In this document: positions 1-59,416 of the stretch, piece after piece
Layout: the number at the start of each line of letters is the position of its first letter
How positions within the stretch are numbered: the first letter of the stretch is position 1
Origin: a virus
Taxonomy: Duplodnaviria; Caudoviricetes
Virus record (IMG/VR): IMGVR_UViG_3300027969_000041
Direction: 5' to 3' (one strand)
DNA length: 64,000 nucleotides
Notes under the pieces: generated by a model
What the model was told of the DNA's origin: nothing
Database searches by the model: none
What the model saw: the letters and a program-made list of their open reading frames with translations, nothing else
Position numbers and translations under genes: made by a program

Positions 1-3000
1 ACCTGCAAAGTTGCCTTGTGGTCCCCATGGATCATCGTTTGCTGATTCACCTTGCTGTTTTTGTTTTTCGGCCCATTGCTTTTCAAACTCTGCTTTTGCT
101 TGTGCAGCTCTTTCTTTACTTGCGTCGGACTTTTGTTTTTGTTGATCCCAAGCCTTGCCTAATTTTGCGGCAGCACTTGTACGAGTAGTCTCAGTAAGTC
201 GAGGGCGAATTAATGCTGTGGATAATCTTTCAGCAACTGGTTGTGCTACCGGAGCAGGTTGTTGTACTGCGGGTTGTTGTGCAGGTTGTTGTGCTGGTGG
301 TTGTATTTGCATCTTATTCCCCGAAATGTCCATTAAATGTTTAATCCAGTTTGGTGGAAGTTTTTGAGCACCATAATTTCCGCCGTTAAATCCGTTATTC
401 CAAAAAGCAAATTTTTGTTCTGCTGTTTCAGTAGGAACCCATTTGCCCTTGGTTACCTCTACAGAACTTTGAGATAGTGCTTGACGCATTTTGGTAAAAC
501 TCATACCGCTGCCGCCAGCCGCTTCATCTCGTTCTGTAACTTCTACTTCTATTTTAACATGCTCGTACCCTGGAAACTTTCTAACTTTCATTAACGACGC
601 CCGGAACTGTTCGGCCATTGCTTTTCTGTCCTTACCTACTACTATCCAAACTGTATCGTATCTTGGAGGTTTTCCTGGTAGAGGATTAATCAATTCATGC
701 TTAATCTTTTGAAGTAAAGATCCGCCGTCGTGATCTACTGTTGAAATATTTTTAGCATATTGAGGATATAACTTATTCCATGTTTGTACTTTAACTGCTG
801 GAGGAATAGGATCATCCGGGCCTTCAGCATTGCCAATGAACAAATAAGGATCACCACCTGTTTTATTTGCCAGTGCAATAGCCTCACTAAACAGTTGTTG
901 ATGTCCCATGTGACCAACTAAACTACCGACAGCGACTACTGCTGTTTTACTTTCGCCCCTCGGGCGTTCTGTTCTGGCACTGGCCATAGCAGCGTTCTTA
1001 GCACTGATAACATCGCGCTGTTCTTGGCTAGTAACTTTGATAGGACCTAGGCGACTATTGATAACAATGCCTTCGTAGTCTTTGCCTAATATATCTTTAC
1101 CAATAATATTAGGATCTTCAATAATGGCTTTTTCTAATGACAGCTTAATAGGTTGTAGTTTTTCTTCAACTTCTCTTTTAAGTTGTTGACTTACACGATC
1201 ACGCTTGCCTGATGTATCACTGACAATCTGTTTTAATTCTTCGATGTTGTCCAATGGATTAATAAGTTCAGTAACATCCAGTCCTTCTTTTTGTGTAAGA
1301 CTATTATCAATAAACATTACACTACCACTGCTACCTACACTTAATAATTCTTTGATAAACTTATTAGAATCTTCTAGGTCTTCTCCTGTGCCAGCATCTG
1401 TGACACGGAATGGTACTAACGCAAGTTGTACACCTTCTGGTAATTTGTCATACTGTATACCTACAAATTTTAATTTACCTTCTGGAGTTTCTGTAGCAAA
1501 CGGCAAATACAATACTTCGCAGGTTACTTGTTTGTTAACTAAAAACTCCGCACCTAGTTTGCTGTCTACTAATTGAATAGCATTCATCATTTCGTTGAAT
1601 AGTTGATCAAACAACTGAGCACGACCTAGTATATCTGGATCAGTTGTACCTTTTTGTTTATGGTATGCTAGGAAACCTGCTTGATAGCGCGGCTCAGTAC
1701 GGCTAGTACCCATAAAAGGTTTGCCGTCTGCGTTCTTACCGAAGCGACCACCAAATCCATCTACTTTAACATTTAACGGAATATTCTGTAATCTAAAACT
1801 TCCATTACCGTCGCTTATTTCATCTAGTAGATCTAAAAAATCAGGTGCCTTTAGATCACGAAGGTGTGGCATACCTTTGCGTAGCTGTGCTTTAACTTCT
1901 GCTTCTGCTAATGGTTGAGCGGGCTTCTTGGCATTAAACGCAGCTTCATAATCTTTGGCCATTTGTAAAACTTGCTTACGCATGTTCTTCATACCTGTTT
2001 GGTCTAACAGATAATCTATGGCTGTCATTTTTGTTTTGAAATCAGTCGTTGGATCATCGGCATCGATCATTTGAGCGCCTTTGCCAAAGTTAATCTTTAA
2101 GAATTCATTAACTACAATTTGATGTTGATCGGGCGTAAAATATTGTTTCATTAATTCTACACTGCCAACAAAGCTGGCCATCATTTTAGTTTGATTGCCT
2201 TCGGCAGGTGTACCAAAGAACTGCTCAAATTGTAGACTCATGTCTTTGATATATTCACTGTCTTTTGGCTCCAACGGAACCATTACAGGAACACCGTTAA
2301 TTTCTAACGGAATATTTTCTTCTGGAGTAGGTTGGCGATATTTGGCACGAACCCCACCGCCTCCTACACTAGCTACAGCAAAACTAAAATTGGCATCGTG
2401 GAATGGCGGTGGCGGACTATCTAAATCTGCAACATACTCTTTGCCGTCGTCGCCTCCGAATATTCTAACACCCTTTTTCTTACCGGCACCTGTTACTTTA
2501 GCAATATATTTGTCAGTAGGAGCAACTTTGGCCAATGAACGATACAGCCATTGACGGAATACACCCTTCATACCTACTTCTAGATCTTCCCAAGCACTAC
2601 CATGACTTACCTGTGCCCATTCTGTAGGAATTTCAAATCCTCTAGCATCTGTGGTATAATCACTAAATTCTAAATCAACTTGTAAAGTAATAGGCGGTTC
2701 GTGTACTTGCCATAATGCTAACCATTGGTCACTTCCCTTTTTTGTACCTAACAATGTAGCACTACCAATATTAGCGCCGATGTTTTTATGTACAAATTCT
2801 TCTATCTGTGGTTCTAATCTGCGATCAATTTGTGTATCAATGTCGCCGACTTTTTTCTTTACACGTTGAAAGTCTTTGTCAGCGACGCCAATCTCTTTTG
2901 GGTTAGTATCTGACTCGGGCTGATTTGGATTAAATCTAGGATTTGGTTGACGCAACTGCATAAACCATTTACTGCTTCCGCTAATAAATGTTTCTACTTC

Positions 3001-3243
3001 TTTTTCAATTAACTCTGGACTCCAAATTGGTCTGCCGTATTGTTTAGTGAATAAGTTATTGATATCGACTAATAGTTGTTTTACCGCAGGCTGCATAGCG
3101 GCACGGTTCTTTGAATCTATTTTACCTGCACTATAGGTGCCTGGCACGCCGGTCCATCCAACAGTAGGTGTACCTGCAGCAGTATGACTGGCAAGGTTAC
3201 CGCCTTCGTTGATTTGTTTTTTGAATATATCCCTCAGTATCAT
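1..3243 (-). CDS. Large multidomain nucleotidyltransferase (Pol-beta-like NTase + KxDG ligase/capping-like domain + HxGH cytidylyltransferase-like domain); 3' end beyond window
   Basis: Manually translated open frame from ATG 3243 to base 1 (1081 codons, no stop; not in ORF track). Motifs: GSS (2971-2979), GDID (2836-2847), KVDG (1756-1767), EGIV (1063-1074), HMGH (901-912), VVGKDR, GMSFTKMR. Confidence 0.85.
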   Translation of the reverse strand, partial: MILRDIFKKQINEGGNLASHTAAGTPTVGWTGVPGTYSAGKIDSKNRAAMQPAVKQLLVDINNLFTKQYGRPIWSPELIEKEVETFISGSSKWFMQLRQPNPRFNPNQPESDTNPKEIGVADKDFQRVKKKVGDIDTQIDRRLEPQIEEFVHKNIGANIGSATLLGTKKGSDQWLALWQVHEPPITLQVDLEFSDYTTDARGFEIPTEWAQVSHGSAWEDLEVGMKGVFRQWLYRSLAKVAPTDKYIAKVTGAGKKKGVRIFGGDDGKEYVADLDSPPPPFHDANFSFAVASVGGGGVRAKYRQPTPEENIPLEINGVPVMVPLEPKDSEYIKDMSLQFEQFFGTPAEGNQTKMMASFVGSVELMKQYFTPDQHQIVVNEFLKINFGKGAQMIDADDPTTDFKTKMTAIDYLLDQTGMKNMRKQVLQMAKDYEAAFNAKKPAQPLAEAEVKAQLRKGMPHLRDLKAPDFLDLLDEISDGNGSFRLQNIPLNVKVDGFGGRFGKNADGKPFMGTSRTEPRYQAGFLAYHKQKGTTDPDILGRAQLFDQLFNEMMNAIQLVDSKLGAEFLVNKQVTCEVLYLPFATETPEGKLKFVGIQYDKLPEGVQLALVPFRVTDAGTGEDLEDSNKFIKELLSVGSSGSVMFIDNSLTQKEGLDVTELINPLDNIEELKQIVSDTSGKRDRVSQQLKREVEEKLQPIKLSLEKAIIEDPNIIGKDILGKDYEGIVINSRLGPIKVTSQEQRDVISAKNAAMASARTERPRGESKTAVVAVGSLVGHMGHQQLFSEAIALANKTGGDPYLFIGNAEGPDDPIPPAVKVQTWNKLYPQYAKNISTVDHDGGSLLQKIKHELINPLPGKPPRYDTVWIVVGKDRKAMAEQFRASLMKVRKFPGYEHVKIEVEVTERDEAAGGSGMSFTKMRQALSQSSVEVTKGKWVPTETAEQKFAFWNNGFNGGNYGAQKLPPNWIKHLMDISGNKMQIQPPAQQPAQQPAVQQPAPVAQPVAERLSTALIRPRLTETTRTSAAAKLGKAWDQQKQKSDASKERAAQAKAEFEKQWAEKQKQQGESANDDPWGPQGNFAG

Positions 3244-3244
3244 G

Positions 3245-3619
3245 TTAGCGTCCTAACTTGTACTTATCTTTGACTACATCTTCACGGAAGTGATTGAATA
3301 ACTTTTCGCAGAGTTCTTTGCGTAATTCTTCTGTGAATGTTTTTTCAGGACGACCTGTTAACTTTTTGTGATGATAGTATTCCATGCAACCTTTGTTAAC
3401 CATAGGTAAGAATTCTTTAATACATTGTTCTTTGTCTAACTCTTCTTTCATACTCTGATGCTTCATCTTTTTTGCAATGGGCAAGGCATAGTCTTTGTGT
3501 AGTTTATCGTGATCTAGAATGTACCAAAATAGGTCATCGTGCATCTCTTTGTCGTCACTATTTTTAGACATCTCTTTGCTGATATCTATTGTTTTTCCAA
3601 AAAATTCATTTAATAACAT
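3245..3619 (-). CDS. Hypothetical protein (possible virion/head protein)
   Basis: 124-aa ORF ending 1 nt before the next start; TAAATA core upstream at 3673-3678. Confidence 0.75.
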   Translation of the reverse strand: MLLNEFFGKTIDISKEMSKNSDDKEMHDDLFWYILDHDKLHKDYALPIAKKMKHQSMKEELDKEQCIKEFLPMVNKGCMEYYHHKKLTGRPEKTFTEELRKELCEKLFNHFREDVVKDKYKLGR

Positions 3620-3701
3620 ATAATTAATATACCTAGATTTCGTGAGAACAGGATATACTCTCTCGTATAGAGTATTTATTACAAGTTGATCAAACGGAAA
3701 T

Positions 3702-4097: not shown

Positions 4098-4109
4098 AGT
4101 AAAGTATAT

Positions 4110-4781
4110 TTATGCCACTATTAGGTTCTCTCTTAGTACATATTCTTCTACAACCCGAACATTATTACCTAAAAATAGACCAAACATGGCCAGTGTTTTA
4201 TCATCCTCAACATACATAAATGGTGCTTGTACATAGGCGTTTCTGCCAGATAACCATCTACTTGTAGAGTCTGCAATAGATATACTGCTGCCATATTTTT
4301 TAGCCCATTCTAAGAACTTAGGTCTAGAATCTAATGGCATGTTTGGTCTAAAGTTTATCTTGTATCTATATTTGTCATACGGAAAATTACTACAAATAAC
4401 TTTCTTTTTACCACTGGACAGCATGAATTCTAGTTCTTCGTCGCTATCTGGCCCTGTAACTGCTTTGAGCCATTTGCCCATGTCTTTAACGATAGCATCT
4501 TTTAATTCACGATCCTTGCAAAAGAAGTTAAAATGACTTCCCTCTGCACGAATCTGTAAATCCTTGTCTAGATAAGGTTCAACTACATTTAAAAATTCAA
4601 TCACACAGGCTTTTTCCTGATCGGAGGATTTAACCCATGTGTTTGTTTTCTGTGCTGCCCAATGTCTAGTGCCTTCTGCGCCAAGCCTAATAATCATACT
4701 AGACCTAGTTAGGATACATTCAATCTTAAAAGGCCACTTACCGTAGTAGAGCTTATTGATTTTCTGCTTCAGCCGGCTCAT
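4110..4781 (-). CDS. Hypothetical protein
   Basis: 223-aa ORF overlapping the clpA stop. Confidence 0.75.
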   Translation of the reverse strand: MSRLKQKINKLYYGKWPFKIECILTRSSMIIRLGAEGTRHWAAQKTNTWVKSSDQEKACVIEFLNVVEPYLDKDLQIRAEGSHFNFFCKDRELKDAIVKDMGKWLKAVTGPDSDEELEFMLSSGKKKVICSNFPYDKYRYKINFRPNMPLDSRPKFLEWAKKYGSSISIADSTSRWLSGRNAYVQAPFMYVEDDKTLAMFGLFLGNNVRVVEEYVLRENLIVA

Positions 4782-7032
4782 CTTTGACCTTCATAATAGG
4801 CATAATATCAATGATATTAAGTTTTAGCTCGTTATTTGCAACTGTGACTTCGACTACGCCACCGTTAATTAACTTACCAAACAATATCTCTTTACTCAGA
4901 GGCTTTTTAATCATTTCATCAATAGTACGTTGCAGTGGGCGAGCACCCATCTTACTGTCAAACCCTTTGCTGATCAAGTACTCAACTGCTTCTGTGTTAG
5001 GTTTAACATGGATATTCTTATCTTTGACTAATGCATTAAGTTCGTCGATAAACTTCTTAACAATTTTAATCATTGTTTGTTGATCTAACTTGCCAAACTT
5101 GATAACACCATCTAACCGATTACGGAATTCTGGAGCAAAGAACTTATTAACAGCGTCTTTCGGATCGCTATCGCGTTCCAAACTGCCAAAGCCGACGCTG
5201 TTCTTTTCAGCATCGGCAGCACCTAAGTTACTGGTTAGAATAACAATGGCATTACGACCATCTGCTTTCTTACCATTACTGCCGGTGATAAAACCGTTAT
5301 CCATTAATTGTAATAAAATAGTCAACACATCTGGGTGTGCTTTTTCAACTTCGTCTAGTAATAGTACACAGTTAGGGCTTTCTTGCAAGCTGGTAATCAG
5401 CTGACCAGCATTGTCGTCAAACCCTACATAGCCCGGAGGAGCACCGATGAACTTGGCAACACTGTGTTTCTCTTGAAATTCACTCATATCAAATCGTACA
5501 AGTTTGGTATTAAGATTTGCAGCCAGTTGTTTGGCAGCTTCTGTTTTGCCTACACCCGTCGGGCCTACAAATAAGAAGCTACCAATAGGTTTGTTAGGTG
5601 ATTTTAAACCTGCTTGTGCAATAAACACTTTATCCAACAATGTTTCGATGGCTTTTTCCTGACCATAGACCTTGGCTTTCATGTTCTTTTCTAGAGTTGC
5701 TAGATTAGCACCTTCTTTATTTGTTAGTTGTTCAACTGGCAATCCAGCAATACGACTAACTTCGAACAAAATTTCTTCATGATCAACAACACCGTCTTCT
5801 TGATCTTTGACTTTAAATCTAGCACAGGCACAGTCGATTAAGTCAATTGCTTTATCGGGCAACTTCTTATCGCTCATATACTTGATAGAATATTTTACAC
5901 TGTCAATAATTGCTTGATTAGTGATCTTAACACCGTGATGTTTTTCGTAATACTTCTTAAGACCTTTAATAATCTTAATAGCAGTTGCTTCGTTAGGCTC
6001 ATCTATGGTAACACGCTGGAATCGACGCATTAATGCACGATCCTTTTCAAAGTGTTTACGATATTCTTCCCATGTGGTACTTGCTACAACTTTAATTGTT
6101 CCTTTACCTAGAGCAGATTTAAGCATATTGGCCATATCGTTGCTACTACCGTTGGCTGCTCCAGCCCCATTCATCATGTGTGCTTCGTCTATGAACAAGA
6201 TACACTTGCCTTTTTTCTCAATAGCCCCAATAACAGTTTTGAGTCTTTCTTCAAAATCACCACGATACTTGCTGCCTGCAAGCATAGCACTAATGTCTAG
6301 GCTATAAACAGTATGGTCCTGAATAAACTTAGGCACATTACCTTCAACAATCTTACGGGCAAGCCCTTCTGCGATGGCAGTTTTACCCACACCTGGATCA
6401 CCAATCATAATAGCATTGGCTTTTGTACGGCGAGCAAGTACTAGTTGAATATCTTCAATCTCTTTTTCGCGACCAATAACAGGGTCAATCTTTCTATTCT
6501 TTGCTTTAGCTGTAAGATTAGTACAGAATTGTACAATCATCTTTTCTAGTTGTGCAGTTTGTCGAGATATACCCGGATCATCTGTAACTTGTTCTTCTTT
6601 GATAATTTCTTTCTTAATAAAACTAATGAATTGATCTTTGTCAATGTTAGCTTTACGAACAAAGTAACTAGCATGACTCTTTTTTTCTGCAAACATACTA
6701 ATAAAACAATCAGCAGGTTCGATAATTTGACGACCACTAAACAATACATGTGTGAACGCACGATTTAACATGCGGTCTACTGTGCTGGTCTTTTTAGGTT
6801 TTTCAGTATCAGCGTTGACAATTTCTTTTAGTTCATTAGAAATATATTGTTCGACATCGTCTTTTAAGACCTTGACATCTGTTCCGAAAGAAGTTAGTAG
6901 TTTTACAAACGATTCGTTATTCAGCATACTGAATAAAAAATGTTCTAGTGTAACGTACTCGTGACTATTCACACTGGCTACTTGTACAGCCTTTTCAAAG
7001 ATTTCTTCTAGGTCTTTATTTGGTTCTAACAT
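4753..7032 (-). CDS. clpA: ATP-dependent Clp protease ATP-binding subunit ClpA
   Basis: N-domain HEYVTLEH; two AAA+ modules ([14 protein letters not shown] and [17 protein letters not shown]); [10 protein letters not shown]; GARPL; lacks the long ClpB middle coiled coil. Confidence 0.93.
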
Positions 7033-7532
7033 TAACGATATTTCCTTTTTTGTGTTTTCTTAACTGCCAGTGCCCATTTAAGGGTACTAACACGATCTTG
7101 GAATACAATACCTTCTAAATGATCTAATTCATGTAAGAAGCATTTGCAATTATATCCGTCAAATTCACTTTCTTGCCACTCACCCTTGGAGTTTTGCCAG
7201 CGAGCAAGTATTTTCTTAGGACGCTTTATATTAACATAAATGCCGGGGAAACTCAAACATCCTTCCTCCACATCTTCTACTATATCTACAGTAGCAACAA
7301 CCATTGGATTGAAGAATGCCTGTGCGGCATCGGGGTAGTCTCTGTGTCCCATAACAAACATACGAGCAGGGATTCCGACTTGATTTGCGGCAAGTCCAAT
7401 GCCGTCATGTGCCAGCATTGTTTTGATCATATCTTTTTCTAACTGTACTGGATCTAGACTAGGATTAGAAAAATCAAATTCGGGTAATTGTTCTCTTAAT
7501 AACGGAGAAGGAAATTTATGTATGTGTAACAT
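7032..7532 (-). CDS. def: Peptide deformylase
   Basis: GIGLAANQVG, EGCLS and HELDHLEG motifs. Confidence 0.96.
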   Translation of the reverse strand: MLHIHKFPSPLLREQLPEFDFSNPSLDPVQLEKDMIKTMLAHDGIGLAANQVGIPARMFVMGHRDYPDAAQAFFNPMVVATVDIVEDVEEGCLSFPGIYVNIKRPKKILARWQNSKGEWQESEFDGYNCKCFLHELDHLEGIVFQDRVSTLKWALAVKKTQKRKYR

Positions 7533-7537
7533 ATTAT

Positions 7538-8356
7538 TTAAGAGAAAAGTTGTTTAATAATATCACGTTGATACTCGTTTAATGTTGGTACTGTTATGTT
7601 AAGTTGAATTAACATACGACCTTTAAAACGATGATCGCTAATATGTGGCATACCGTAACCATTTGCTGCCAACATTTGTCCTGGTTGTGTTCCCGGCTTA
7701 ACTTCTATTTCTAAAGTCTTGCCATCTATTGTATCTACGGTAATAGTTTTACCTATCATTGCATCGATACAGCTAACATCTATAGACCTAATTAAATCGT
7801 CACCTTGTCGAGTGAATATTGGGTGCGGATATATATGAACACTAAGATGAATATCACCTCGGGGTATATTTGGAATACTATCATCGCCCATGCTAGCTAA
7901 TCGCAGAGTTGTTCCGTCTTGCACACCTGCAGGAATTTTAACATCAATTAACTGTTCTTTACCGCTGGGTAATACAATATTTGCCATTAGGTCCTTGCCA
8001 CTGAACGCTTCTTCTAAAGAGATGTCGGTTCGCATATTCAATGTTCGGTTGCGTTGTTGTCTACGCCCTCCAAACATATCTCCAAATGGTCCTCCTCCAA
8101 AAGCATTGAATATATCTTCAAAGCCCGGGGGCATTCCTCCTCCGAATTGCTGGAATCCTTGAGGCATGGGATTATCGTATTGTTGTCGTTTTTGCGGATC
8201 ACTGAGTGTGCGATATGCTTCTTCAACTTCTTGAAATTTAGCTGTATCACCACCTCTATCCGGATGATGGTTTGCCGCCATCTTTCGATAGGCCCGTTTA
8301 ATTTCGTCTGGTGTAGCGCCTCGATTAACGCCTAATGTTTGATAAAAGTCTGTCAT
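7538..8356 (-). CDS. dnaJ: DnaJ/CbpA-like co-chaperone (J domain + G/F region + C-terminal domain, no Zn finger)
   Basis: YQTLGV...HPD motif, G/F-rich linker, C-terminal KIPAGV and GDL elements. Confidence 0.92.
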   Translation of the reverse strand: MTDFYQTLGVNRGATPDEIKRAYRKMAANHHPDRGGDTAKFQEVEEAYRTLSDPQKRQQYDNPMPQGFQQFGGGMPPGFEDIFNAFGGGPFGDMFGGRRQQRNRTLNMRTDISLEEAFSGKDLMANIVLPSGKEQLIDVKIPAGVQDGTTLRLASMGDDSIPNIPRGDIHLSVHIYPHPIFTRQGDDLIRSIDVSCIDAMIGKTITVDTIDGKTLEIEVKPGTQPGQMLAANGYGMPHISDHRFKGRMLIQLNITVPTLNEYQRDIIKQLFS

Positions 8357-12955: not shown

Positions 12956-12963
12956 TATTTATA
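12956..12963 (-). promoter_or_regulatory. T4 late-promoter consensus TATAAATA
   Basis: Exact octamer 19 nt upstream of the start at 12936, heading the operon that includes the lysis genes. Confidence 0.65.
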
Positions 12964-21649: not shown

Positions 21650-24487
21650 TTAAGGTAATTTTTTCTTAATTTCGTCTATTTCTGTTTTAAGCTCTTTAAT
21701 TGCTTCAATTACTAGACCGATAATGTTACCGTAGGCAACAGAATATAATCCGTTTTCGTTTAATCTCACAGCTTCAGGTAGAACAGATAATAATTCCTGC
21801 GCAATAACACCTGTACTGTCCACGCCGTCGTCGATACGAGTAAACAATACACCTCGTAATTTTAGAAGTTTATCTAGGGCATTTTCAATAGTTCTAATGT
21901 TAGTCTTTGTTCGTTCGTCTGATGTTATAGTAACGTCTACAAACTGTGGTGAACCGCCCGTTGTCAAGTTTTGTGTCATTGACAGGCTAAGAGTACTACC
22001 AGAAAAACTGCCCTGAACACCGTTATTACCGCTAACAGTTATGCTAGCAATACCGCCCGGACCTGATGGACCGCTTGGACCACTTACATTACTAGGTTGA
22101 TTACTGGCTGCATTACTTGCAGGACCTGATGGACCGCTCGGCCCTTGACTTCCTTGATTCCCTTGGTTACCTTGATTCCCTTGGTTACCTTGATTTCCTT
22201 GAGGACCTGATGGTCCACTTGGACCTTGATTTCCTTGAGGACCTGATGGTCCACTTGGACCTTGACTGCCTGGATTACCTTGATTACCTGGATTACCTTG
22301 ATTACCTGGATTACCGGCTGCATTACTTCCAGGCCCTGATGGTCCTTGTGCGCCACTCGGACCTTGAGGTCCACTTGGTCCTGATGTATTGCTACCTGGA
22401 CCACTTGGACCTTGACTTCCTTGGTTGCCGTTTGGACCACTTGGACCACTTGGTCCTTGTGCTCCTGCACCCGAAGGTCCGCTCGGACCAGATACAGTAC
22501 TTGGAGTGTTATTTGTAGGTCCTGATGGTCCTGATGGACCACTTGGACCAGCTGCATTACTTCCAGGACCCTGTGGTCCACTCGGTCCTTGTGGACCCGA
22601 TGGTCCAGATACAGTACTTGGAGTGTTATTTGTAGGTCCTTGTGGACCCGATGGTCCACTTGGACCTTGAGGTCCTTGTGCGCCACTTGGTCCTTGCGGA
22701 CCACTTATTGCACTGGCTGCTCCGCTCGGTCCTTGTGGACCTTGAGGTCCTTGTGCGCCACTTGGTCCTTGCGGGCCCGACACAGTACTTCCTGCACCGC
22801 TTGGTCCTTGTGGACCTTGAGGTCCTTGTGAGCCAGTAGGTCCTTGTGGGCCTTGTACACCCTGCGGACCCATAACAGTTCCGAGGTCAATCCATGAAAC
22901 TCCGTTCCAATACCATATATGATTATTAGTTGTTAATTGATAAGCATCACCTACTTGTGCTCCGGCCGCATAGCCAGCTAATTCTGATGTATTACCAATT
23001 GTACCTCTAACAATAACAAACTGTCCAATAGGTCCTTGCGGTCCCTGAGGTCCTTGCGGGCCACTTGGTCCTTGATTACCTATTGGTCCCTGAGGTCCTT
23101 GCGGTCCCTGAGGTCCTTGCGGTCCACTTGGCCCTGACATATTACTGTCAACACCCGCAGTACCTTGATTTCCTCGCGGTCCACTTGGTCCTTGCGGGCC
23201 ACTTGGCCCTTGTGGTCCCTGTGGGCCTTGAGCACCTGACGGGCCACTTGGTCCCTGAACTCCTTGTGGTCCAACAAACGGCCCTACGTCAGTCCAGCCA
23301 CTTCCGTCGTAAACATACAAGTGACCGTTGCTAGATATAATGTATCCATCATTAATTTGCGGGTTAACAATGGAGTTTAGATCAGATACATTGGCTCTAG
23401 TGCCTTTAACTACTAATGCTGCACCTACTGGGCCACTTGGTCCCTGAGGTCCCTGCGGACCTTGTGGTCCTTGTGCTCCTTGATTTCCTTGATTCCCTTG
23501 AGGACCTGATGGACCTGATGGTCCTTGCGGGCCTTGAGGACCTTGTGGCCCACGCGGCCCTGATGGTCCAGATGGACCGCTTGGTCCTTGTGGTCCTGAT
23601 GGACCTGATCCTGTGAATTCTACACCATTTTGATAAAGTTTGCCGCCAAAGTAAATGTCCTTGGCAACACCTAATCCACCTGAAACTACGGCTGCTCCTG
23701 TAGTAGTTGATACAGCATTTGTAGTTGTAGTAACGAGTACTTTAGGAACAGATAATGCACCTGTGCTGGCTAGGTAACTTAAATTACTGTCAACACCCGG
23801 AGTTAGATAAGATCCTGGTCCTGCTGCTAATGTAGGATAATAAACTGTAGTAGTATTGCTAAGATCACTAATTAATACTTTAATTGCTTGACCTGCATTA
23901 TCAGGAACAATAGTAGATGTACTGACCCAAGTAGCAGTAGTTCCATTACTTTGCAATAGATACCCGGTAGGACCTATTCCAATGAATCCTGTAGTATTAG
24001 GTGCTGTTTGATAAGGAATGCTACCTGTAGAACCACCGGCAATGTTTGTGAGTAATGTAGACACAGGTCCTTGAGGACCTTGATTACCGCGTGATCCTTG
24101 AGGGCCACTTGGTCCCTGATTCCCAGGATTTCCCTGATTCCCAGGAACACCGATTGGTCCTTGTGGTCCCTGTACTCCACTTGGTCCACTTGGCCCTTGC
24201 GGCCCCTGAGGTCCTTGCGGTCCACTTGGTCCCGATGGGCCACTTGGTCCCGATGGGCCTTGCGGTCCCTGCGGTCCCTGAGCACCTGATGGTCCTTGAG
24301 GTCCACTCGGGCCTTGTGGTCCTTGAGGACCGGGATCGCCTTGAAGTTGTAATAACTCAGCTGCCTGTTCTGCTGTTAAGTATTGTTCTACAGATGAATC
24401 TGCTACGATAAACTTGGTCTCACCAAGCGTAGGTGTGGTTAAATTAGTGTCTAAAACCTGGGGCAGCGGTGATCTGTTAGTGGTCAT
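21650..24487 (-). CDS. Collagen-like tail fibre with C-terminal peptidase S74 intramolecular chaperone
   Basis: Four Gly-X-Y blocks (GPQ/GPS/GNQ); SDERTKTNI...GVIAQEL...[17 protein letters not shown]. Confidence 0.92.
22060..24335. repeat. Collagen-coding 9-bp-period repeat blocks (approximate span)
   Basis: Recurrent GGTCCACTT/GGTCCTTG units; duplicated [10 protein letters not shown] segment near 22490-22520 and 22605-22640. Confidence 0.9.
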
Positions 24488-24548
24488 TTGTTTAGGTACC
24501 TATCATTATATATGCAATAGTATATTTATTAAATCAAAAACTAGGAGA

Positions 24549-43769: not shown

Positions 43770-43798
43770 ATAGTACAGTATTATTTAGGTTCTGTCAA
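43770..43798 (-). promoter_or_regulatory. sigma70 promoter of folE with TAAATA in the spacer
   Basis: TTGACA-17-TACTAT. Confidence 0.72.
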
Positions 43799-44689
43799 CC
43801 GTAGTAGTGTATTTTTTCTAACAGCGGCATCCAATACCATCATGCTAGCACCTACTTCTTCTGCGTATTTGAGTAAGGCAGCTGTGTCTTTTGGAAAGCA
43901 AGCACCACCGAAGCCGAATAATCCATCAGGACCTGGCACCCTCAAGTGGCTTGAACCAATTCTTGAATCTAAATTGACCATACTTATCACAGTATTGTAG
44001 TTCATACCGCCTGCTATTGCAACATTATGTATTTCATTCATAAATGATACTTTAGTTGCTAGATATGTATTGATAGTATACTTGGCTAGGGCGGCTTCAT
44101 CAATGGTGCAGAAGCGAACATTTTCACCGATGCCAGGTTGTCCCCAGCGAATAATACGTTCTGCATCTCGTTGATATGCACCCACACAACCGCCAATGAT
44201 AGCAAACTTGCCGTTAGCATAATCTCTACTAGCATCTGCGGCAGTTAAAAACTCAGGAGCATGGACTAGATTTTTATGTTTTGTCTGTAGTGCTTTATAA
44301 ACACTAGGAGGTGCTGTACTTTTGCTAATTATAACTCCATTGTATCCTAAAGATGCAAGTTTATCTAATGCACTTTCTAGATAGCTAGTATCGCAACTGC
44401 CATCATCGCCTTGTGGACTGGGAACACATATAAACACACCTTCGCAGTCTAACAGATCTTCATACTTGCCCTGCAGGCCTTTAGGAGGATCTACCAAAAT
44501 TAGATCACAGGCATGTTCCATGTTATCTCTAATAGCACTGCCGACAAATCCCAATCCGACAATACCAACCTTTGGCGGCTTATTAAAAAACATTTTATTT
44601 TCTTTCTTTATATTAATATAATTATCTGCAACTTCATCAGCAAAGATAATTTTTGCACCACCTAAAGTACCGGGCATGTCAAGAGTCAT
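43781..44689 (-). CDS. UDP-glucose/GDP-mannose dehydrogenase family protein
   Basis: GLGFVG, ICVPSP, KST, PEFL, KYTINTYLA, GFGGACFPKD. Confidence 0.9.
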   Translation of the reverse strand: MTLDMPGTLGGAKIIFADEVADNYINIKKENKMFFNKPPKVGIVGLGFVGSAIRDNMEHACDLILVDPPKGLQGKYEDLLDCEGVFICVPSPQGDDGSCDTSYLESALDKLASLGYNGVIISKSTAPPSVYKALQTKHKNLVHAPEFLTAADASRDYANGKFAIIGGCVGAYQRDAERIIRWGQPGIGENVRFCTIDEAALAKYTINTYLATKVSFMNEIHNVAIAGGMNYNTVISMVNLDSRIGSSHLRVPGPDGLFGFGGACFPKDTAALLKYAEEVGASMMVLDAAVRKNTLLRLTEPK

Positions 44690-54272: not shown

Positions 54273-55727
54273 TTAAAAAACTTTAACACCATTAATATCT
54301 TGCCAACGAAGGGCATCGTTCCATGAATTCACCAAAGGCTCGCCTTTAACATTCATGCTAGTATTCATTAAAATTGGACATCCACTAGCTTTATACCATG
54401 CTTCTAATAGTGCCCTAAACCTAGGGTTATCTTCTTTTTCCACAGTTTGTACCCTACTTGTACCGTCAACATGACAGATTCCGGGCAGTAAATCGGGCCG
54501 TTTACAACGAGCCACAAACTGCATATATGGGCTAGATTTTACTGGCATATCAAAATATAGTCTTGCTTGTTCGGCTAAAATAGCCGGCGCAAACGGGCGA
54601 AATTCTTCTCTACGTTTGAGTTTATTCATACGATCTTTAGCACCCGGGCCACGCGGATCACAAAGTAAACTACGATTTCCGAGAGCTCTTGGACCAAACT
54701 CTGCCCTTCCATTTGCTACAGCAACAACATTTCCTGCTAGTAATTCTTTGATAATACCATCTATATCTAATTTACGATCTATATCTGTACCTAAATACGG
54801 ACTTTGCCAATTTAGATGTTGTTTTGTATATGCGGCAACCGCGCCTATTGCACTACCTGCATCTCCGGGATTAGGCATAAGCCAAATATTTTCATACAAC
54901 CCTAATTCGGCAATCTTAGTATTAGCAACACAGTTAAGAGCACAACCTCCCATGAATATAAAATTCTTACTAGGCAGATGTTTTTTCATCCATTTAACTG
55001 TACCTATTAAATATTCTTCCATAATTGCTTGTACACTGGCAGCAATATCATATTTGCTTATGCCGTCTGGAGCAGACCACCATGCACAACCTTGATGCAA
55101 ATTATGTCGCAACTTAAAATTAGGAGCACTAAATTTAGAAAAGAATTCTTTTTTGATAAATTCTTTAATACTAGGTTTACCTAATGCCGCCATGCCCATT
55201 AAGATGTATTCTTCTTCATTGGGTTTAAGTCCTAGCCAGTGTGTAAATGCTGTATAGAACAATCCTATACTATTTGGGTATCTTTTATTCCATACTTTGG
55301 TTAGGCCTGTTTTATCAGCTTGCCATATGCTTACAGTATCCCATTCACCTATAGCATCAACAACTAAAATACTAGCATCAGTAAATCCACTGGTATAAAA
55401 TCCTGCCGCAGCATGACTTTCATGATGTCCTACTACCTCCAATGGTAATGTATTAAGTCCTACAAGTCTTAATTGATCTATAGGACTTGTCATCCATGGA
55501 CTTTGACCTGCATATAGTCTGCGTAAACTTTTAAGAAACGGTTTTTCAAACCATACAATCTTTGTGGGGGTTCCGTATGAGCGCATTTCTCTAACCATAT
55601 CAAGGTCTAACATACTATCGTTTTTAATACGACTATATCGTTCACTGTGTGCCGCCCAAACAATTTCCTGGCCGTCAACTAAGGCCATACTAGCATCGTG
55701 ATTTTGCGCTGTAATACCGAGTATCAT
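54273..55727 (-). CDS. Carbamoyltransferase (NodU/CmcH/TobZ family)
   Basis: ILGI...HDAS, HHESHAAA, EYILMG, GGCALNC, GDAG, EFGPRALGNRS, REEFRPFAP, HVDGTSRVQTV, NTSMN. Confidence 0.94.
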   Translation of the reverse strand: MILGITAQNHDASMALVDGQEIVWAAHSERYSRIKNDSMLDLDMVREMRSYGTPTKIVWFEKPFLKSLRRLYAGQSPWMTSPIDQLRLVGLNTLPLEVVGHHESHAAAGFYTSGFTDASILVVDAIGEWDTVSIWQADKTGLTKVWNKRYPNSIGLFYTAFTHWLGLKPNEEEYILMGMAALGKPSIKEFIKKEFFSKFSAPNFKLRHNLHQGCAWWSAPDGISKYDIAASVQAIMEEYLIGTVKWMKKHLPSKNFIFMGGCALNCVANTKIAELGLYENIWLMPNPGDAGSAIGAVAAYTKQHLNWQSPYLGTDIDRKLDIDGIIKELLAGNVVAVANGRAEFGPRALGNRSLLCDPRGPGAKDRMNKLKRREEFRPFAPAILAEQARLYFDMPVKSSPYMQFVARCKRPDLLPGICHVDGTSRVQTVEKEDNPRFRALLEAWYKASGCPILMNTSMNVKGEPLVNSWNDALRWQDINGVKVF

Positions 55728-55728
55728 T

Positions 55729-55836
55729 TTAATAGATAAACGGATCTCGTTTACGCAACTCTGCAATACGTTTTTTTAATGCTTTTCTTTGTTTGTAATC
55801 TCGGATCCATACCCAGATGTTTTTAAAAATGTTCAT
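55729..55836 (-). CDS. 35-aa basic peptide upstream of the carbamoyltransferase
   Basis: Manually translated MNIFKNIWVWIRDYKQRKALKKRIAELRKRDPFIY. Confidence 0.62.
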   Translation of the reverse strand: MNIFKNIWVWIRDYKQRKALKKRIAELRKRDPFIY

Positions 55837-57596: not shown

Positions 57597-58358
57597 TTAA
57601 TACCTTGCAAATTCGCCCGAAGGTCCCAACCAACCGTAAACTGTCCAGTCGGTTTCGATGATATCTTTTTCAAAGGGTCTTGTTAAGTAATAACCTAGAG
57701 TTTCAATATCAAAATGATACATGTGAGGCAATGCCAGCATTGCCGCCATTCCTGACCACATATCTAAAAAGTGTTTGTGATGTTTCTTACCCCACCCAAA
57801 AATTACAGAGGAGTATTGGTACAGATAATTATTGCCTTGTTCCTGTCGTCTATCAACTAATGAATAATTCCACTTATCTTTCCATTCCCAGGCAATAGGC
57901 TGCTTATAAAATATCCTATCTGTACTATATTTGTTAAACACCGCTGGATCAAAAGAGCTATCGATAAAATACCGGCCGCTTATCTTAAAAATATAATCAT
58001 TTTCAAAAAGTTCTTTTTGATATTTTCTAATAAATGTAGATACTGACAAACACTCACAATAACTTTTTTGAGGGTGAGTAGTTACTATTTCGTATATATC
58101 AGGGAACTCTTCTTTTATACTAATAAATTTTAAGTTTTTTTGATATAATAATTGGTCTCGATATTGTTGCCAATTTTCGCTGGTATCTAATATATAAATT
58201 GTTGTCTCTGTATCGGACACTAAATCTAGAGAGGCAATGGTCATTATGGTTTGTCTTAATCTTTCTTCATTAGAAAAATAAGATCGAACTTTACTATAAG
58301 TTAGAGGATTATTATTGTTTACCTCTATAGAGCTCGTTACAATAAATGCTTTTTTCAT
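57597..58358 (-). CDS. Glycosyltransferase-like protein (paralog of 42230..42976)
   Basis: FIVTSSI, ERLRQTIMTIAS, FKISGRY. Confidence 0.6.
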   Translation of the reverse strand: MKKAFIVTSSIEVNNNNPLTYSKVRSYFSNEERLRQTIMTIASLDLVSDTETTIYILDTSENWQQYRDQLLYQKNLKFISIKEEFPDIYEIVTTHPQKSYCECLSVSTFIRKYQKELFENDYIFKISGRYFIDSSFDPAVFNKYSTDRIFYKQPIAWEWKDKWNYSLVDRRQEQGNNYLYQYSSVIFGWGKKHHKHFLDMWSGMAAMLALPHMYHFDIETLGYYLTRPFEKDIIETDWTVYGWLGPSGEFARY

Positions 58359-59377
58359 GGTCTATAAAAATTTGATTCTTGTACTTTTTTAAGATAACTG
58401 TTTAATTTCTCGTGTATTACTGCATCTTCATAATTTAACATAGCCCAATCTCTACATCGTTTAGGTGATATTCTATTGATGTTATTAATTGCGTCAACAA
58501 ACTCTCTAAACTCTCTACAACGATATCCTGTTACACCTTGTACTACAGTTTCAGTGAAGCCACCCCAGTCTGTGGTAATTGCCGGAGTGCCGCTCATGTA
58601 ACCTTCTATTATCATATTGCCGAACGGTTCAACATAGTATGTAGGTCCAATAACAGCTTTTGCTCGAGCCATGAGTGTACGGCGCTGTTCTGCATCACAT
58701 ACTCCTGCTATAGTTACATGATCTGGAATTTCATGGTAACCCAAATCTGCCAATGATCCCGATCCGGCAATTATTAATTTCTGACCCGTTTCTTTAGTTG
58801 CTTGAATTGCAATGTCGATACCTTTGCTAGGAATTACTCTTCCAAAATATAAAAAGTAATCGCCTTTTTCTTCTGTATAATCAAACTCGCTAGCAGTAAT
58901 ACCGTTTGGAATAACAGCATCGAACCATCCCGGATTTTGTTCATTGCCTTTCATTCCATAATACATGTGCATTTGTGCGTACGATGTAAAAACTTTATAC
59001 ATGGCAAATACTGCGGTCATTGTATAACCAATTCCCGGTTCAACAACTTTAAGATCGTTATTTGCTTCGGCAGCATCTTTATTTTCTATACCATACATAC
59101 ATATAACTATGTCTCCTGGCTTTTTACGGAGGGCAATTTCTTTACCTGCTAGGTTATTATACTCTGTTATATTAACTGCAAAATTATTAGATTTTACAGG
59201 TAAACAATTAACTAACTCACATGAAACCTCAGATCCGGGGATACCATAATGGATACAATCCCATCCATATTGGGTCATGTAGTTTATAAATTTTAGAGTA
59301 GATATGGAAAAAGGATCTATTCTATTGTTTATGTGTACCGGGGTGTGAGGGCTAGATAAAATATGTAATGTTGTCAT
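58355..59377 (-). CDS. GT-B fold glycosyltransferase (GT4-like)
   Basis: IPNG, YFGRVIPSKG, EPFG...IE...SGTPAI...GGFTE. Confidence 0.88.
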   Translation of the reverse strand: MTTLHILSSPHTPVHINNRIDPFSISTLKFINYMTQYGWDCIHYGIPGSEVSCELVNCLPVKSNNFAVNITEYNNLAGKEIALRKKPGDIVICMYGIENKDAAEANNDLKVVEPGIGYTMTAVFAMYKVFTSYAQMHMYYGMKGNEQNPGWFDAVIPNGITASEFDYTEEKGDYFLYFGRVIPSKGIDIAIQATKETGQKLIIAGSGSLADLGYHEIPDHVTIAGVCDAEQRRTLMARAKAVIGPTYYVEPFGNMIIEGYMSGTPAITTDWGGFTETVVQGVTGYRCREFREFVDAINNINRISPKRCRDWAMLNYEDAVIHEKLNSYLKKVQESNFYRP

Positions 59378-59387
59378 TGTACTTGTA

Positions 59388-59416
59388 ATTATACATTTAT
59401 AGAACAGCAAATGCAA
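59388..59416 (-). promoter_or_regulatory. sigma70-type promoter
   Basis: TTGCAT-17-TATAAT; 16-bp palindrome TTTGCTCTAGAGCAAA upstream at 59434-59449. Confidence 0.68.

Follow-up and report, generated by a model that had tools for sequence, protein, structure and literature searches.

The internal proteins of bacteriophage T4 are targeted to the prohead by propeptides of 10-19 residues, and gp21, the head protease of this phage, cleaves behind L/I-x-E (PMC9026906). In other phages, nucleotidyltransferases (NTases) of the RlaP family, members of the Pol-beta superfamily, work beside RNA ligases, a pairing often met in jumbo phages (PMC7824862), and RlaP extends damaged RNA 3' ends by 1-2 nucleotides (bioRxiv 10.64898/2025.12.29.696909). 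A cytidylyltransferase has been reported in virions of cyanophage S-CREM2 (ORF154), and such enzymes are often found in cyanophage virion proteomes, with contamination not excluded there (PMC10665884). Here we compare with these systems a gene at the edge of IMGVR_UViG_3300027969_000041, a 64,000-nucleotide stretch of tailed-phage DNA (Caudoviricetes) that we call the window. The window phage is a T4-like jumbo phage, encoding T4-type clamp loader, tail-fibre, endolysin, holin and virion proteins. On balance we lean towards reading the product of this gene as head-loaded cargo: a polyprotein that would be cut by the head protease, ejected, and most likely active on nucleic-acid ends.

The gene occupies an uninterrupted minus-strand frame of at least 1,081 codons, which begins with an ATG at 3243 and runs off the window edge at base 1 (Table 1), just as the first-pass annotation of this DNA had reported. 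The full open reading frame (ORF) could be retrieved from database protein P0002, which is encoded on a 201-kb contig, is 1,262 amino acids (aa) long and is 100% identical over all 1,081 residues; hence, the window lacks only the last 181 codons. The motifs cited in that annotation were all found by translation, in the order stated and with their coordinates checked: GS (residues 89-90), GDID (133-136) and QVD (188-190) in a first segment; KVDG (493-496), CEVL (575-578), EGIV (724-727) and IKV (735-737) in a second; and HMGH (778-781), VVGKDR (868-873) and SFTKMR (915-920) in a third, with a Q/P-rich linker from about residue 980. Because no Pfam family or PDB sequence recognised either of the first two segments, structures were modelled. 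AlphaFold2 (AF2) models of residues 1-445 and 446-985, each built with an alignment of 21 homologues, had mean predicted local distance difference test (pLDDT) values of 89.6 and 84.7, respectively. The models and segment-wise fold searches bear out the proposal that the three segments adopt three different NTase folds. As modelled, the architecture is a Pol-beta-type NTase (D1, residues 14-447), an RNA-ligase-like KxDG domain (D2, residues 448-756) and an HxGH adenylyl/cytidylyltransferase (D3, residues 757-985).

Table 1. Features of the polyprotein gene and its upstream region, in window coordinates
Feature	Position	Strand	Basis
Polyprotein gene, first 1081 of 1262 codons	1..3243	-	frame; full length from P0002
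Leader MILRDIFKKQINE, residues 1-13, predicted capsid-targeting propeptide, ends I-N-E	3205..3243	-	homologue statistics
D1, residues 14-447, putative Pol-beta-superfamily NTase with extra beta and helical subdomains	1903..3204	-	AF2, fold searches
G89-S90, hG[GS] motif of D1	2974..2979	-	invariant; translation check
D134-I-D136, predicted metal-binding DxD of D1	2836..2844	-	invariant; on model strand 135-140
D190-L-E192, third carboxylate strand of D1	2668..2676	-	invariant; translation check
L445-A-E447, predicted prohead-protease site at D1/D2 border	1903..1911	-	[LIV]xE in 98% of 120 homologues
D2, residues 448-756, predicted covalent-lysine (ligase/capping) NTase fold	976..1902	-	Foldseek; motifs
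K493-V-D-G496, ligase motif I, predicted nucleotidyl-accepting lysine	1756..1767	-	K493, D495, G496 invariant
E724-G-I-V ... K736-V-T-S, ligase motifs IV and V	1036..1074	-	E724, G725, K736, T738, S739 invariant
D3, residues 757-985, HxGH (HIGH) Rossmann NTase by model, PPAT/NadD/FMN-adenylyltransferase type	289..975	-	VIA-align, Foldseek
H778-M-G-H781, HxGH motif	901..912	-	H778, G780, H781 invariant
S915-F-T-K-M-R920, counterpart of ISxTxxR nucleotide-phosphate motif	484..501	-	S915, R920 invariant
Q/P-rich linker, residues 986-1081, with V-A-E1005 and L-T-E1018; start of variable tail	1..288	-	tail comparison
124-aa ORF upstream, leader of same kind (MLLNEFF...)	3245..3619	-	ends 2 nt before polyprotein ATG
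AATAAATA, T4-late-promoter-like, 61 nt upstream of 124-aa ORF (two-gene unit)	3673..3680	-	motif scan

Homologues of the protein are numerous. A word-indexed search returned 563 at E<=0.001, the best 120 of them at 48-100% identity, and an exhaustive profile search of 1.8 billion representatives returned 1,094 representative proteins matching at least one domain. The homologues of the word-indexed search stem from assemblies of JGI, ENA, NCBI and Logan, with many full-length forms on contigs of 100-350 kb. We scored conservation in a set of 21 homologues that are pairwise less than 72% identical. The key motif positions are invariant in 21/21: G89, S90, D134, D136, D190 and E192 in D1; K493, D495, G496, E576, E724, G725 and K736 in D2; and H778, G780, H781, S915 and R920 in D3. 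This motif conservation and the number of homologues are far above chance. Residues 1-985 form the conserved core, of which the middle and third parts are extremely well conserved, with a mean column identity in the same set of 74% and 58%, respectively. Beyond residue 985 the homologues diverge, with tails of 0-880 residues in which modules appear sporadically (ParB_N, sigma-70 region 4, LysM, a cytidine-deaminase domain, DUF6886, DUF6321 and HD_4). A Pfam scan of 113 tails and N-terminal modules found no kinase or phosphatase domain for end healing, only sporadic, unrelated modules.

Could the fusion be an assembly chimera? We rejected this explanation because independent contigs from all four assembly sources carry the fusion, which more than 560 metagenomic proteins share. 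The fusion is genuine. In related phages, as the first-pass annotation had suggested checking, the three parts are encoded as adjacent, collinear genes. Xanthomonas phage BUDD carries on one strand, in order, a D1 homologue, a 333-aa protein, a D2 homologue (KLDG) and a 162-aa CTP_transf_like protein, and Stenotrophomonas phage Mendera has the same four-gene row with KMDG as the D2 motif. In Vibrio phage Va1, the D1 gene is followed about 1.3 kb downstream by a 484-aa protein (gene 166, L005 7472-8926, plus strand) that, from inspection of its motifs, appears to join a KxDG ligase-like half to a HIGH-like half with a degenerate HxGH (TKDGH); profiles built from the D2 and D3 alignments do not detect it. 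The representative library further contains D1-only proteins (many, of 340-420 aa) as well as D1-D2, D2-D3 and D3-only proteins, and in P0200 a HIGH domain of the BUDD type is joined to D1 in one protein. Recurrence of the three parts both fused and as adjacent collinear genes is the pattern typically expected of functionally linked proteins.

Other features of these split loci are recorded here in their own right. The gene between the D1 and D2 homologues (314-333 aa; BUDD L004 5888-6889, minus strand; Mendera L006 5908-6852, plus strand) has neither a Pfam match nor BLAST similarity to the fused polyprotein, and may be a fourth partner of the split cassette. Va1 encodes a CCA-adding enzyme, about 3 kb upstream of its D1 homologue. 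In three phage groups (CP220 L007 3978-6146, Mendera L006 717-5918 and BUDD L004 6889-13081), QueE-like radical-SAM genes, which belong to the 7-deazaguanine pathway, adjoin D1 homologues or are within a few kb of them; this may be a coincidence of synteny. A link to 7-deazaguanine DNA modification was considered and dropped: the TGT/DpdA profile search was empty even in BUDD, which has an annotated gene, and was hence uninformative.

The fold of D1 was assigned from its model, in which the motif strands are residues 135-140 and 185-194. In VIA-align, more than 20 members of the Pol-beta superfamily came out on top (Z 7.9-5.6, over model residues 44-214), among them TUT7 (Z 7.9), Trf4, GLD-2, TdT, Pol mu/lambda/beta, CutA, CD-NTase, OAS2 and African swine fever virus (ASFV) Pol X. 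Foldseek agreed weakly, with a probability of up to 0.84 (Pol beta), and a viral Pol X cluster of the ESM Atlas (DNA_pol_B_palm plus DNA_pol_B_thumb) matched with a TM-score of 0.67 by hit. We accept the Pol-beta fold because the hits point consistently to one superfamily and because the GS, the DxD and the third Asp are invariant. At the sequence level, D1 matches phrog_19290 (E 1.5e-17); a search against solved structures gave nothing useful. The RlaP family PF10127 did not match D1 at E<=1, and the stand-alone D1 protein P0198 likewise has no Pfam match. As in the RlaP modules, a Pol-beta-superfamily NTase is here genetically coupled to a fold of the ATP-dependent RNA ligase type, D1 being fused or adjacent to D2 in the window, BUDD and Mendera. 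Unlike RlaP, D1 lies outside PF10127 and has extra subdomains.

D2 is, on its model, nearest by fold to the ATP-dependent RNA ligases. Foldseek against PDB gave probabilities of 0.97-1.00 to Rnl3 (8uce, 5d1o) and Rnl5 (6vt1) over about 300-318 columns and of 0.89 to T4 Rnl1 (9do4) over about 300 columns, with low TM-scores for these ligase matches (0.29-0.36 by target). The top Swiss-Prot structural match was the yeast tRNA ligase Trl1 (probability 0.97), and this match spans D2 and D3. The KxDG motif, whose K493 is predicted to accept a nucleotidyl group covalently, is conserved in the D2 homologues of BUDD and Mendera as well. E576 (motif III), E724-G725 (motif IV) and K736 (motif V) follow the T4 Rnl1 spacing; motifs IV and V were set side by side with T4 Rnl1 IEGYVAVMKDGSHFKIKS from the T4 record. 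Like T4 Rnl1 with Pnkp and like fungal Trl1, D2 has a KxDG, an EGxV and a motif V lysine, at the T4 Rnl1 spacing. Unlike those systems, it has Thr in place of the second motif V lysine and is followed by an HxGH Rossmann NTase rather than a P-loop kinase, with no phosphoesterase. By sequence, D2 is not a member of Rnl1 or Rnl2: no Pfam family matched at E<=1, a PDB profile search with the D2 alignment was empty at E<=10, and hhalign of that alignment against T4 Rnl1 gave a probability of 0.8%. The hhalign failures say little, because the alignments have low diversity (effective sequence number, Neff, about 2).

Perhaps D1 and D2 act on DNA instead? On entry, D1 could fill gaps in the manner of a Pol X and D2 could seal nicks, mending nicks, gaps and restriction damage in the incoming phage DNA, with DNA-binding tail modules tethering the enzymes to it. 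D1 aligns over 160-200 residues with the palm and thumb of Pol beta, lambda, mu and TdT, and the ESM Atlas palm-plus-thumb cluster described above points the same way, as do the ParB_N, sigma-70 region 4 helix-turn-helix and S13-like modules in homologue tails. As in ASFV, where a Pol X is paired with a ligase, a ligase-fold partner follows a domain that aligns with 160/176 residues of Pol X; unlike in ASFV, the score is low (Z 6.1), D1 is 2.5 times larger than Pol X, and D2 is RNA-ligase-like. DNA ligases carry an oligonucleotide-binding (OB) domain, which the D2 model, as we read it, does not have. The best Foldseek E-value for D2-D3 did go to DNA ligase IV in a non-homologous end-joining complex, but that match has a poor TM-score and a root-mean-square deviation of 45 A, and the other listed ligase matches of D2 are RNA ligases. 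The top Z-scores of D1 belong to RNA-specific terminal transferases, although the scores overall are too weak to tell RNA from DNA. We consider DNA repair at entry a possible but rather unlikely function.

D3 is clearly, in its model, an HxGH Rossmann NTase. VIA-align gave Z 12.7-10.4 over 148-172 aligned residues, which amounts to whole PPAT/NadD chains (top scores: PPAT, Z 12.7; NadD, Z 11.8), and the Foldseek probability was 1.00. In sequence searches D3 matched phrog_3041 "cytidyltransferase" (E 9.6e-14) and, as a PDB profile match, the HxGH region of the RibF FMN adenylyltransferase (E 0.002); its only Pfam match was a weak one to FAD_syn (E 0.15). T917 is nearly invariant. An hhalign comparison of the D3 alignment with the BUDD HIGH gene gave a probability of 0.3%, again from low-diversity alignments (Neff about 2). 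Among cultured phages, the nearest relatives of D3 are "cytitidyltransferases" of T4-like cyanophages (217 records, 25-28% identity). The D3 profile matched that of S-SM2 (SSM2_161) with E 1e-11 in a small sequence set; the S-SM2 protein is the one that this comparison covered. D3 resembles a class found in virion proteomes (PMC10665884), whose members differ from the polyprotein in being about 400 aa long, with no D1 or D2 detectable by the profiles of those domains.

In the ESM Atlas, the cytidylyltransferase-like domain occurs in phage proteins fused to NTP_transf_2 and a PAP2 phosphatase, to AAA_33/Zeta-toxin kinases and NTP_transf_2, or to DUF6267 or DUF6321. Judging from these fusions, multi-enzyme proteins of phages seem to use the HxGH domain repeatedly as a hub.

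We wondered whether D3 might serve cofactor or nucleotide metabolism. It would then be NMNAT-like and restore NAD+ or another adenylylated cofactor as infection begins, with D1, D2 or both making or destroying nucleotide signals. The virion cytidylyltransferase has been treated as an NMNAT homologue (PMC10665884). D3 is equally close to NadD/NMNAT and to PPAT, and D1 also resembles CD-NTases, OAS and cGAS-like receptors (Z 5.6-6.5). Moreover, the separate HIGH genes of BUDD, Mendera and P0200 have GRFQPxHxGH, which we take to resemble archaeal-type NMNAT. However, D3 is always accompanied by a ligase-fold domain, and the ligase-fold members that we know of act on polynucleotide 5' ends only; nor was a NAMPT or Nudix partner seen beside the gene. 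A role in cofactor supply or nucleotide signalling is therefore unlikely in our view.

Transfer of a phospho-alcohol is another pathway that an HxGH domain could serve. D3 would make a CDP-alcohol, as TagD/ECT do, and a LicD/fukutin-like D1 would put it on a glycan or a modified base. LicD and fukutin share the Pol-beta-type fold, phage fusions of CTP_transf_like, NTP_transf_2 and PAP2 phosphatase exist in the ESM Atlas, and sugar-modifying enzymes are encoded in the window. Yet neither LicD nor fukutin is among the fold matches listed for D1, the ligase-fold domain would be left without a role, and packaging would be purposeless for such a pathway. We regard this explanation as highly improbable.

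The evidence for packaging lies in the leader and in a set of conserved Glu sites. Residues 1-14 are disordered in the AF2 model and run into an invariant E13-G14-(G)-N16. Leaders precede GGN in 178 homologues and are 5-24 residues long, with a mode of 13-16; their last residue (P1) is Glu in 175/178 (98%), and P3 is L, I or V in 175/178 (98%). Phe is the majority residue at leader position 7 and is kept in MILRDIFKKQINE. Another 25 homologues start exactly at M-GGN and have no leader. Because the Glu is absent from these M-GGN forms, the enzyme can dispense with it; its retention in leader-bearing forms is the behaviour expected of a cleavage determinant. The T4 IPII/IPIII leader is MKTYQEFIAE (T4 record), and the leaders MKKFKQFLKE and MKQFKNFLNE of stand-alone D1 proteins are close copies of it. 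That of the window protein is a variant of the T4 sequence, of the form M-x-L-x-D/E-hydrophobic-F, that retains Phe7 and I-x-E. The S-SM2 "cytitidyltransferase" likewise begins with a T4-type leader, MKSFFQFLSE, and gp100 of Campylobacter phage CP220 has a leader too.

Further candidate cut sites were found by counting [LIV]xE column by column in 120 homologues. The motif is conserved at E13 in 92%, at E447 in 98% and at E1238, near the C terminus, in 87%. Only one other column reaches that level, E475 (100%), which is part of the N-terminal helix of D2 and probably has a structural role. The E447 site falls within the low-confidence linker of both AF2 models. No conserved [LIV]xE separates D2 from D3 in this count, and in the tail-linker stretch at least one occurs in 85% of homologues. 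The site at E447 and the lack of one at the D2/D3 border match the natural gene splits, in which D1 stands alone and D2 and D3 stay together. The first-pass annotation had pictured one machine; the conserved E447 site instead predicts a cut that would part a Pol-beta-type enzyme from a ligase-HxGH enzyme, so the polyprotein is probably not a single machine. The relay between chemistries and the use against host defence that the same annotation had proposed are conjectural. In P0002, past the window edge (residues 1234-1262), about 25 C-terminal residues after P-V-S-E (87%) are conserved across otherwise unrelated tails and may form a propeptide at the C terminus, such as has been reported for T4 Alt.

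Leaders and junctions also follow a pattern in other members of the family: separately encoded modules each have their own leader, whereas fused forms have one leader and an [LI]xE at the junction. Some homologues have at their N terminus an HExxH module, joined through [LI]xE before GGN, with a weak Peptidase_M78 match (E 2.5e-4, barely below the cut-off). A homologue of the 124-aa ORF upstream of the window gene is fused in front of the polyprotein in P0027, P0030, P0035, P0043, P0123 and P0145, where the junction reads ...K-L-M-E and then GGN, without a second leader. A gp21-type protease (Peptidase_S77) is encoded in 6/6 related phage records: a 331-kb relative, whose polyprotein homologue is 49% identical, BUDD, Va1, Mendera, CP220 and S-SM2. 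The family shares with T4 IPI-III and Alt a short leader, a Phe at position 7, a predicted L/I-x-E cut site, variable cargo behind a conserved leader and, in the six records, a gp21-type S77 protease (PMC9026906, PMC3012670). What sets it apart is the predicted cargo: instead of a small inhibitor or ADP-ribosyltransferase, it has a polyprotein of about 140 kDa that combines three NTase folds with candidate internal cut sites. The suggestion that the protein may be packaged and injected thereby gains, in the T4-type leader and the conserved L/I-x-E sites, stronger support than the operon position first offered for it. The cyanophage class nearest to D3, with its reports from virion proteomes (PMC10665884), and the late-promoter-like motif upstream of the gene also speak for packaging. 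We conclude that the polyprotein is probably packed into the head, cut, and ejected with the DNA.

Could the protein nevertheless be a cytoplasmic enzyme? The leader would then be a mere extension, the Glu sites would be structural, and the intact protein would be a multi-enzyme agent of RNA repair or modification. Leaderless D1 genes exist in cultured T4-like phages, and neighbouring genes include early or middle types such as DNA polymerase and clamp loader. Against this stand the dispensable Glu, which 98% of the forms with a leader retain along with L/I/V at P3; the separate modules with leaders of their own, set against fused forms that keep junction sites only; and the close resemblance of the leaders to the T4 capsid-targeting sequence. 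A purely cytoplasmic role seems to us quite unlikely.

In the scheme that we infer for packaged cargo, the polyprotein would be synthesised late and its 13-residue leader would dock it into the prohead core. A gp21-type head protease would then cut after Glu13, after Glu447, in the tail linker and probably after Glu1238, releasing D1 (about 49 kDa, with GGN as its N terminus), a two-domain D2-D3 enzyme and small, variable tail modules. The cleaved enzymes would be ejected into the host with the DNA. Purely by analogy, D1 might add nucleotides to 3'-OH ends, D2 might seal 3'-OH/5'-phosphate breaks through a Lys493-nucleoside monophosphate (NMP) intermediate, and D3 might transfer NMP to a phosphate-bearing acceptor, either a cofactor precursor of the nicotinamide mononucleotide (NMN) type or a 5'-phosphate end. 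D1 and D2 together would make a ready kit for repairing or remodelling nucleic-acid ends, probably of RNA or tRNA, from the start of infection. We favour RNA and tRNA because the pairing of RlaP with an RNA ligase is the nearest functional precedent.

Several observations weigh against this account. The case for packaging is read from sequence features of this protein and its close relatives. L/I-x-E is a short motif, and it is the conservation of its position that carries the argument. The D1 proteins of BUDD, Mendera and Va1 are leaderless though these phages encode the protease; the enzymes can therefore work without packaging, and the presence of a leader does not correlate with that of the head protease, which leaderless phages also encode. 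The neighbouring genes are a mixed set and not a head-gene cluster. As to the enzymes, the D1 fold scores (Z under 8) lie within the range that the tool calls common, no Pfam family matched D1 or D2 in a scan of the 1,081 residues at E<=1, the second motif V lysine of D2 is replaced by an invariant Thr738, and the hhalign probability for D2 against T4 Rnl1 is the 0.8% given above. D1 aligns with the palm and thumb of Pol X about as well as with RNA-specific enzymes; since that match spans both subdomains, D1 may have a templated, DNA-directed activity, with DNA as its substrate. The polyprotein also has no kinase or phosphatase to heal 2',3'-cyclic-phosphate/5'-OH breaks. Finally, we know of no established role for an HxGH enzyme in RNA repair.

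The pairing of D2 with D3 suggests one more possibility. The injected set could repair ends by a new two-enzyme chemistry of ligation or end tagging, in which the ligase-fold and HxGH domains are never separated, and so pre-empt defences that cleave RNA or tRNA, ahead of all phage gene expression. For example, the HxGH domain may adenylylate 5'-phosphate ends, or may provide a special nucleotide cofactor to a ligase with a degenerate motif V. We hold this to be unlikely.

The genes around the polyprotein gave a mixed answer on its expression. The first-pass annotation had placed it in a late-type operon, a claim that we find weakly supported: the late-promoter-like AATAAATA upstream speaks for it, and the mixture of neighbouring genes speaks against it. 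The T4 late promoter consensus is TATAAATA. The motif NATAAATA occurs only five times on the minus strand of the window and once on the plus strand, and 4/5 of the minus-strand copies (3673-3680, 4107-4114, 12956-12963 and 24523-24530) lie 17-61 nt upstream of gene starts. The genes behind them are the 124-aa ORF, a 131-aa virion-protein-like ORF, a 175-aa ORF and a collagen-like tail-fibre gene, and these four copies are candidate T4-type late promoters. The 124-aa ORF itself had no significant Pfam match, the nearest being a weak one to RloB (E 0.027). Neighbours in the window include a ClpB-like ATPase, a peptide deformylase, a holin and an endolysin; downstream of the gene, as seen in the syntenic relatives L002 and L003, come a DNA-binding protein and, close behind the gene, a T4-like DNA polymerase.

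Other features of the window are noted for completeness. Upstream of the polyprotein, a conserved row recurs in three phages (window 4110-8356, minus strand; L002 114-5209; L003 2880-7992) and consists of a phrog_14336 protein, the peptide deformylase, a 759-aa ClpB-like "ATP-dependent protease" ATPase with two AAA+ domains, and ORFs of 223, 131 and 124 aa; a phage-encoded deformylase beside a Clp-type unfoldase is unusual. The collagen-like tail-fibre gene (945 aa, 21650-24487, minus strand) forms a local GC peak of 0.50 against about 0.38. Genes of sugar chemistry at 43781-44689, 54273-55766 and 58355-59416 (minus strand) encode UDP-glucose-dehydrogenase-like, NolO-like carbamoyltransferase and glycosyltransferase proteins, which may modify DNA or the cell surface.

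How new is this family? We found no publication on it, and neither the polyvalent-protein survey nor the jumbo-phage survey mentions it; literature on DUF6267 or "cytitidyltransferase" was not found either. Polyvalent proteins of phages and conjugative elements (Iyer et al. 2017, PMC5512222) resemble the polyprotein in joining unrelated enzymatic domains in one polypeptide, in their predicted injection with the DNA and in variable accessory modules such as ParB_N, deaminase and LysM. They differ in the mode of release, which here would be by the head protease at L/I-x-E and not by a built-in zincin peptidase; the zincin-like metallopeptidase hub domain is absent from the window protein, and some homologues have the N-terminal HExxH module described above. 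A term search of PMC5512222 returned no passage on a ligase or an HxGH enzyme within polyvalent proteins. From the RlaP modules, the family is further set apart by a ligase that is not Rnl1 or Rnl2 by sequence and is always joined to an HxGH domain, and by head-targeting signals on the proteins. We see no new category here but a variation that combines three known kinds: head cargo of the T4 type, injected polyvalent proteins, and repair modules of a Pol-beta enzyme with a ligase. The most original element is the ligase-HxGH pair, for which no counterpart has been described and which may conceal new biochemistry.

Proteins injected with phage DNA decide the first minutes of an infection. To our knowledge, few kinds of them have been recognised: T4 Alt and the internal proteins, the virion RNA polymerases of N4 and phiKZ, and P1 Dar. 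If the polyprotein is packaged as predicted, these phages would deliver to the cell, already made as protein, enzymes for three chemistries of nucleotidyl transfer, and RNA repair or end modification would extend from an expressed to a pre-loaded counter-defence. Packaging would also give a context to the widespread virion-associated "cytidylyltransferases" of cyanophages. Should it be confirmed, the leader together with the L/I-x-E rule could mark other head cargo in uncultured T4-like phages.

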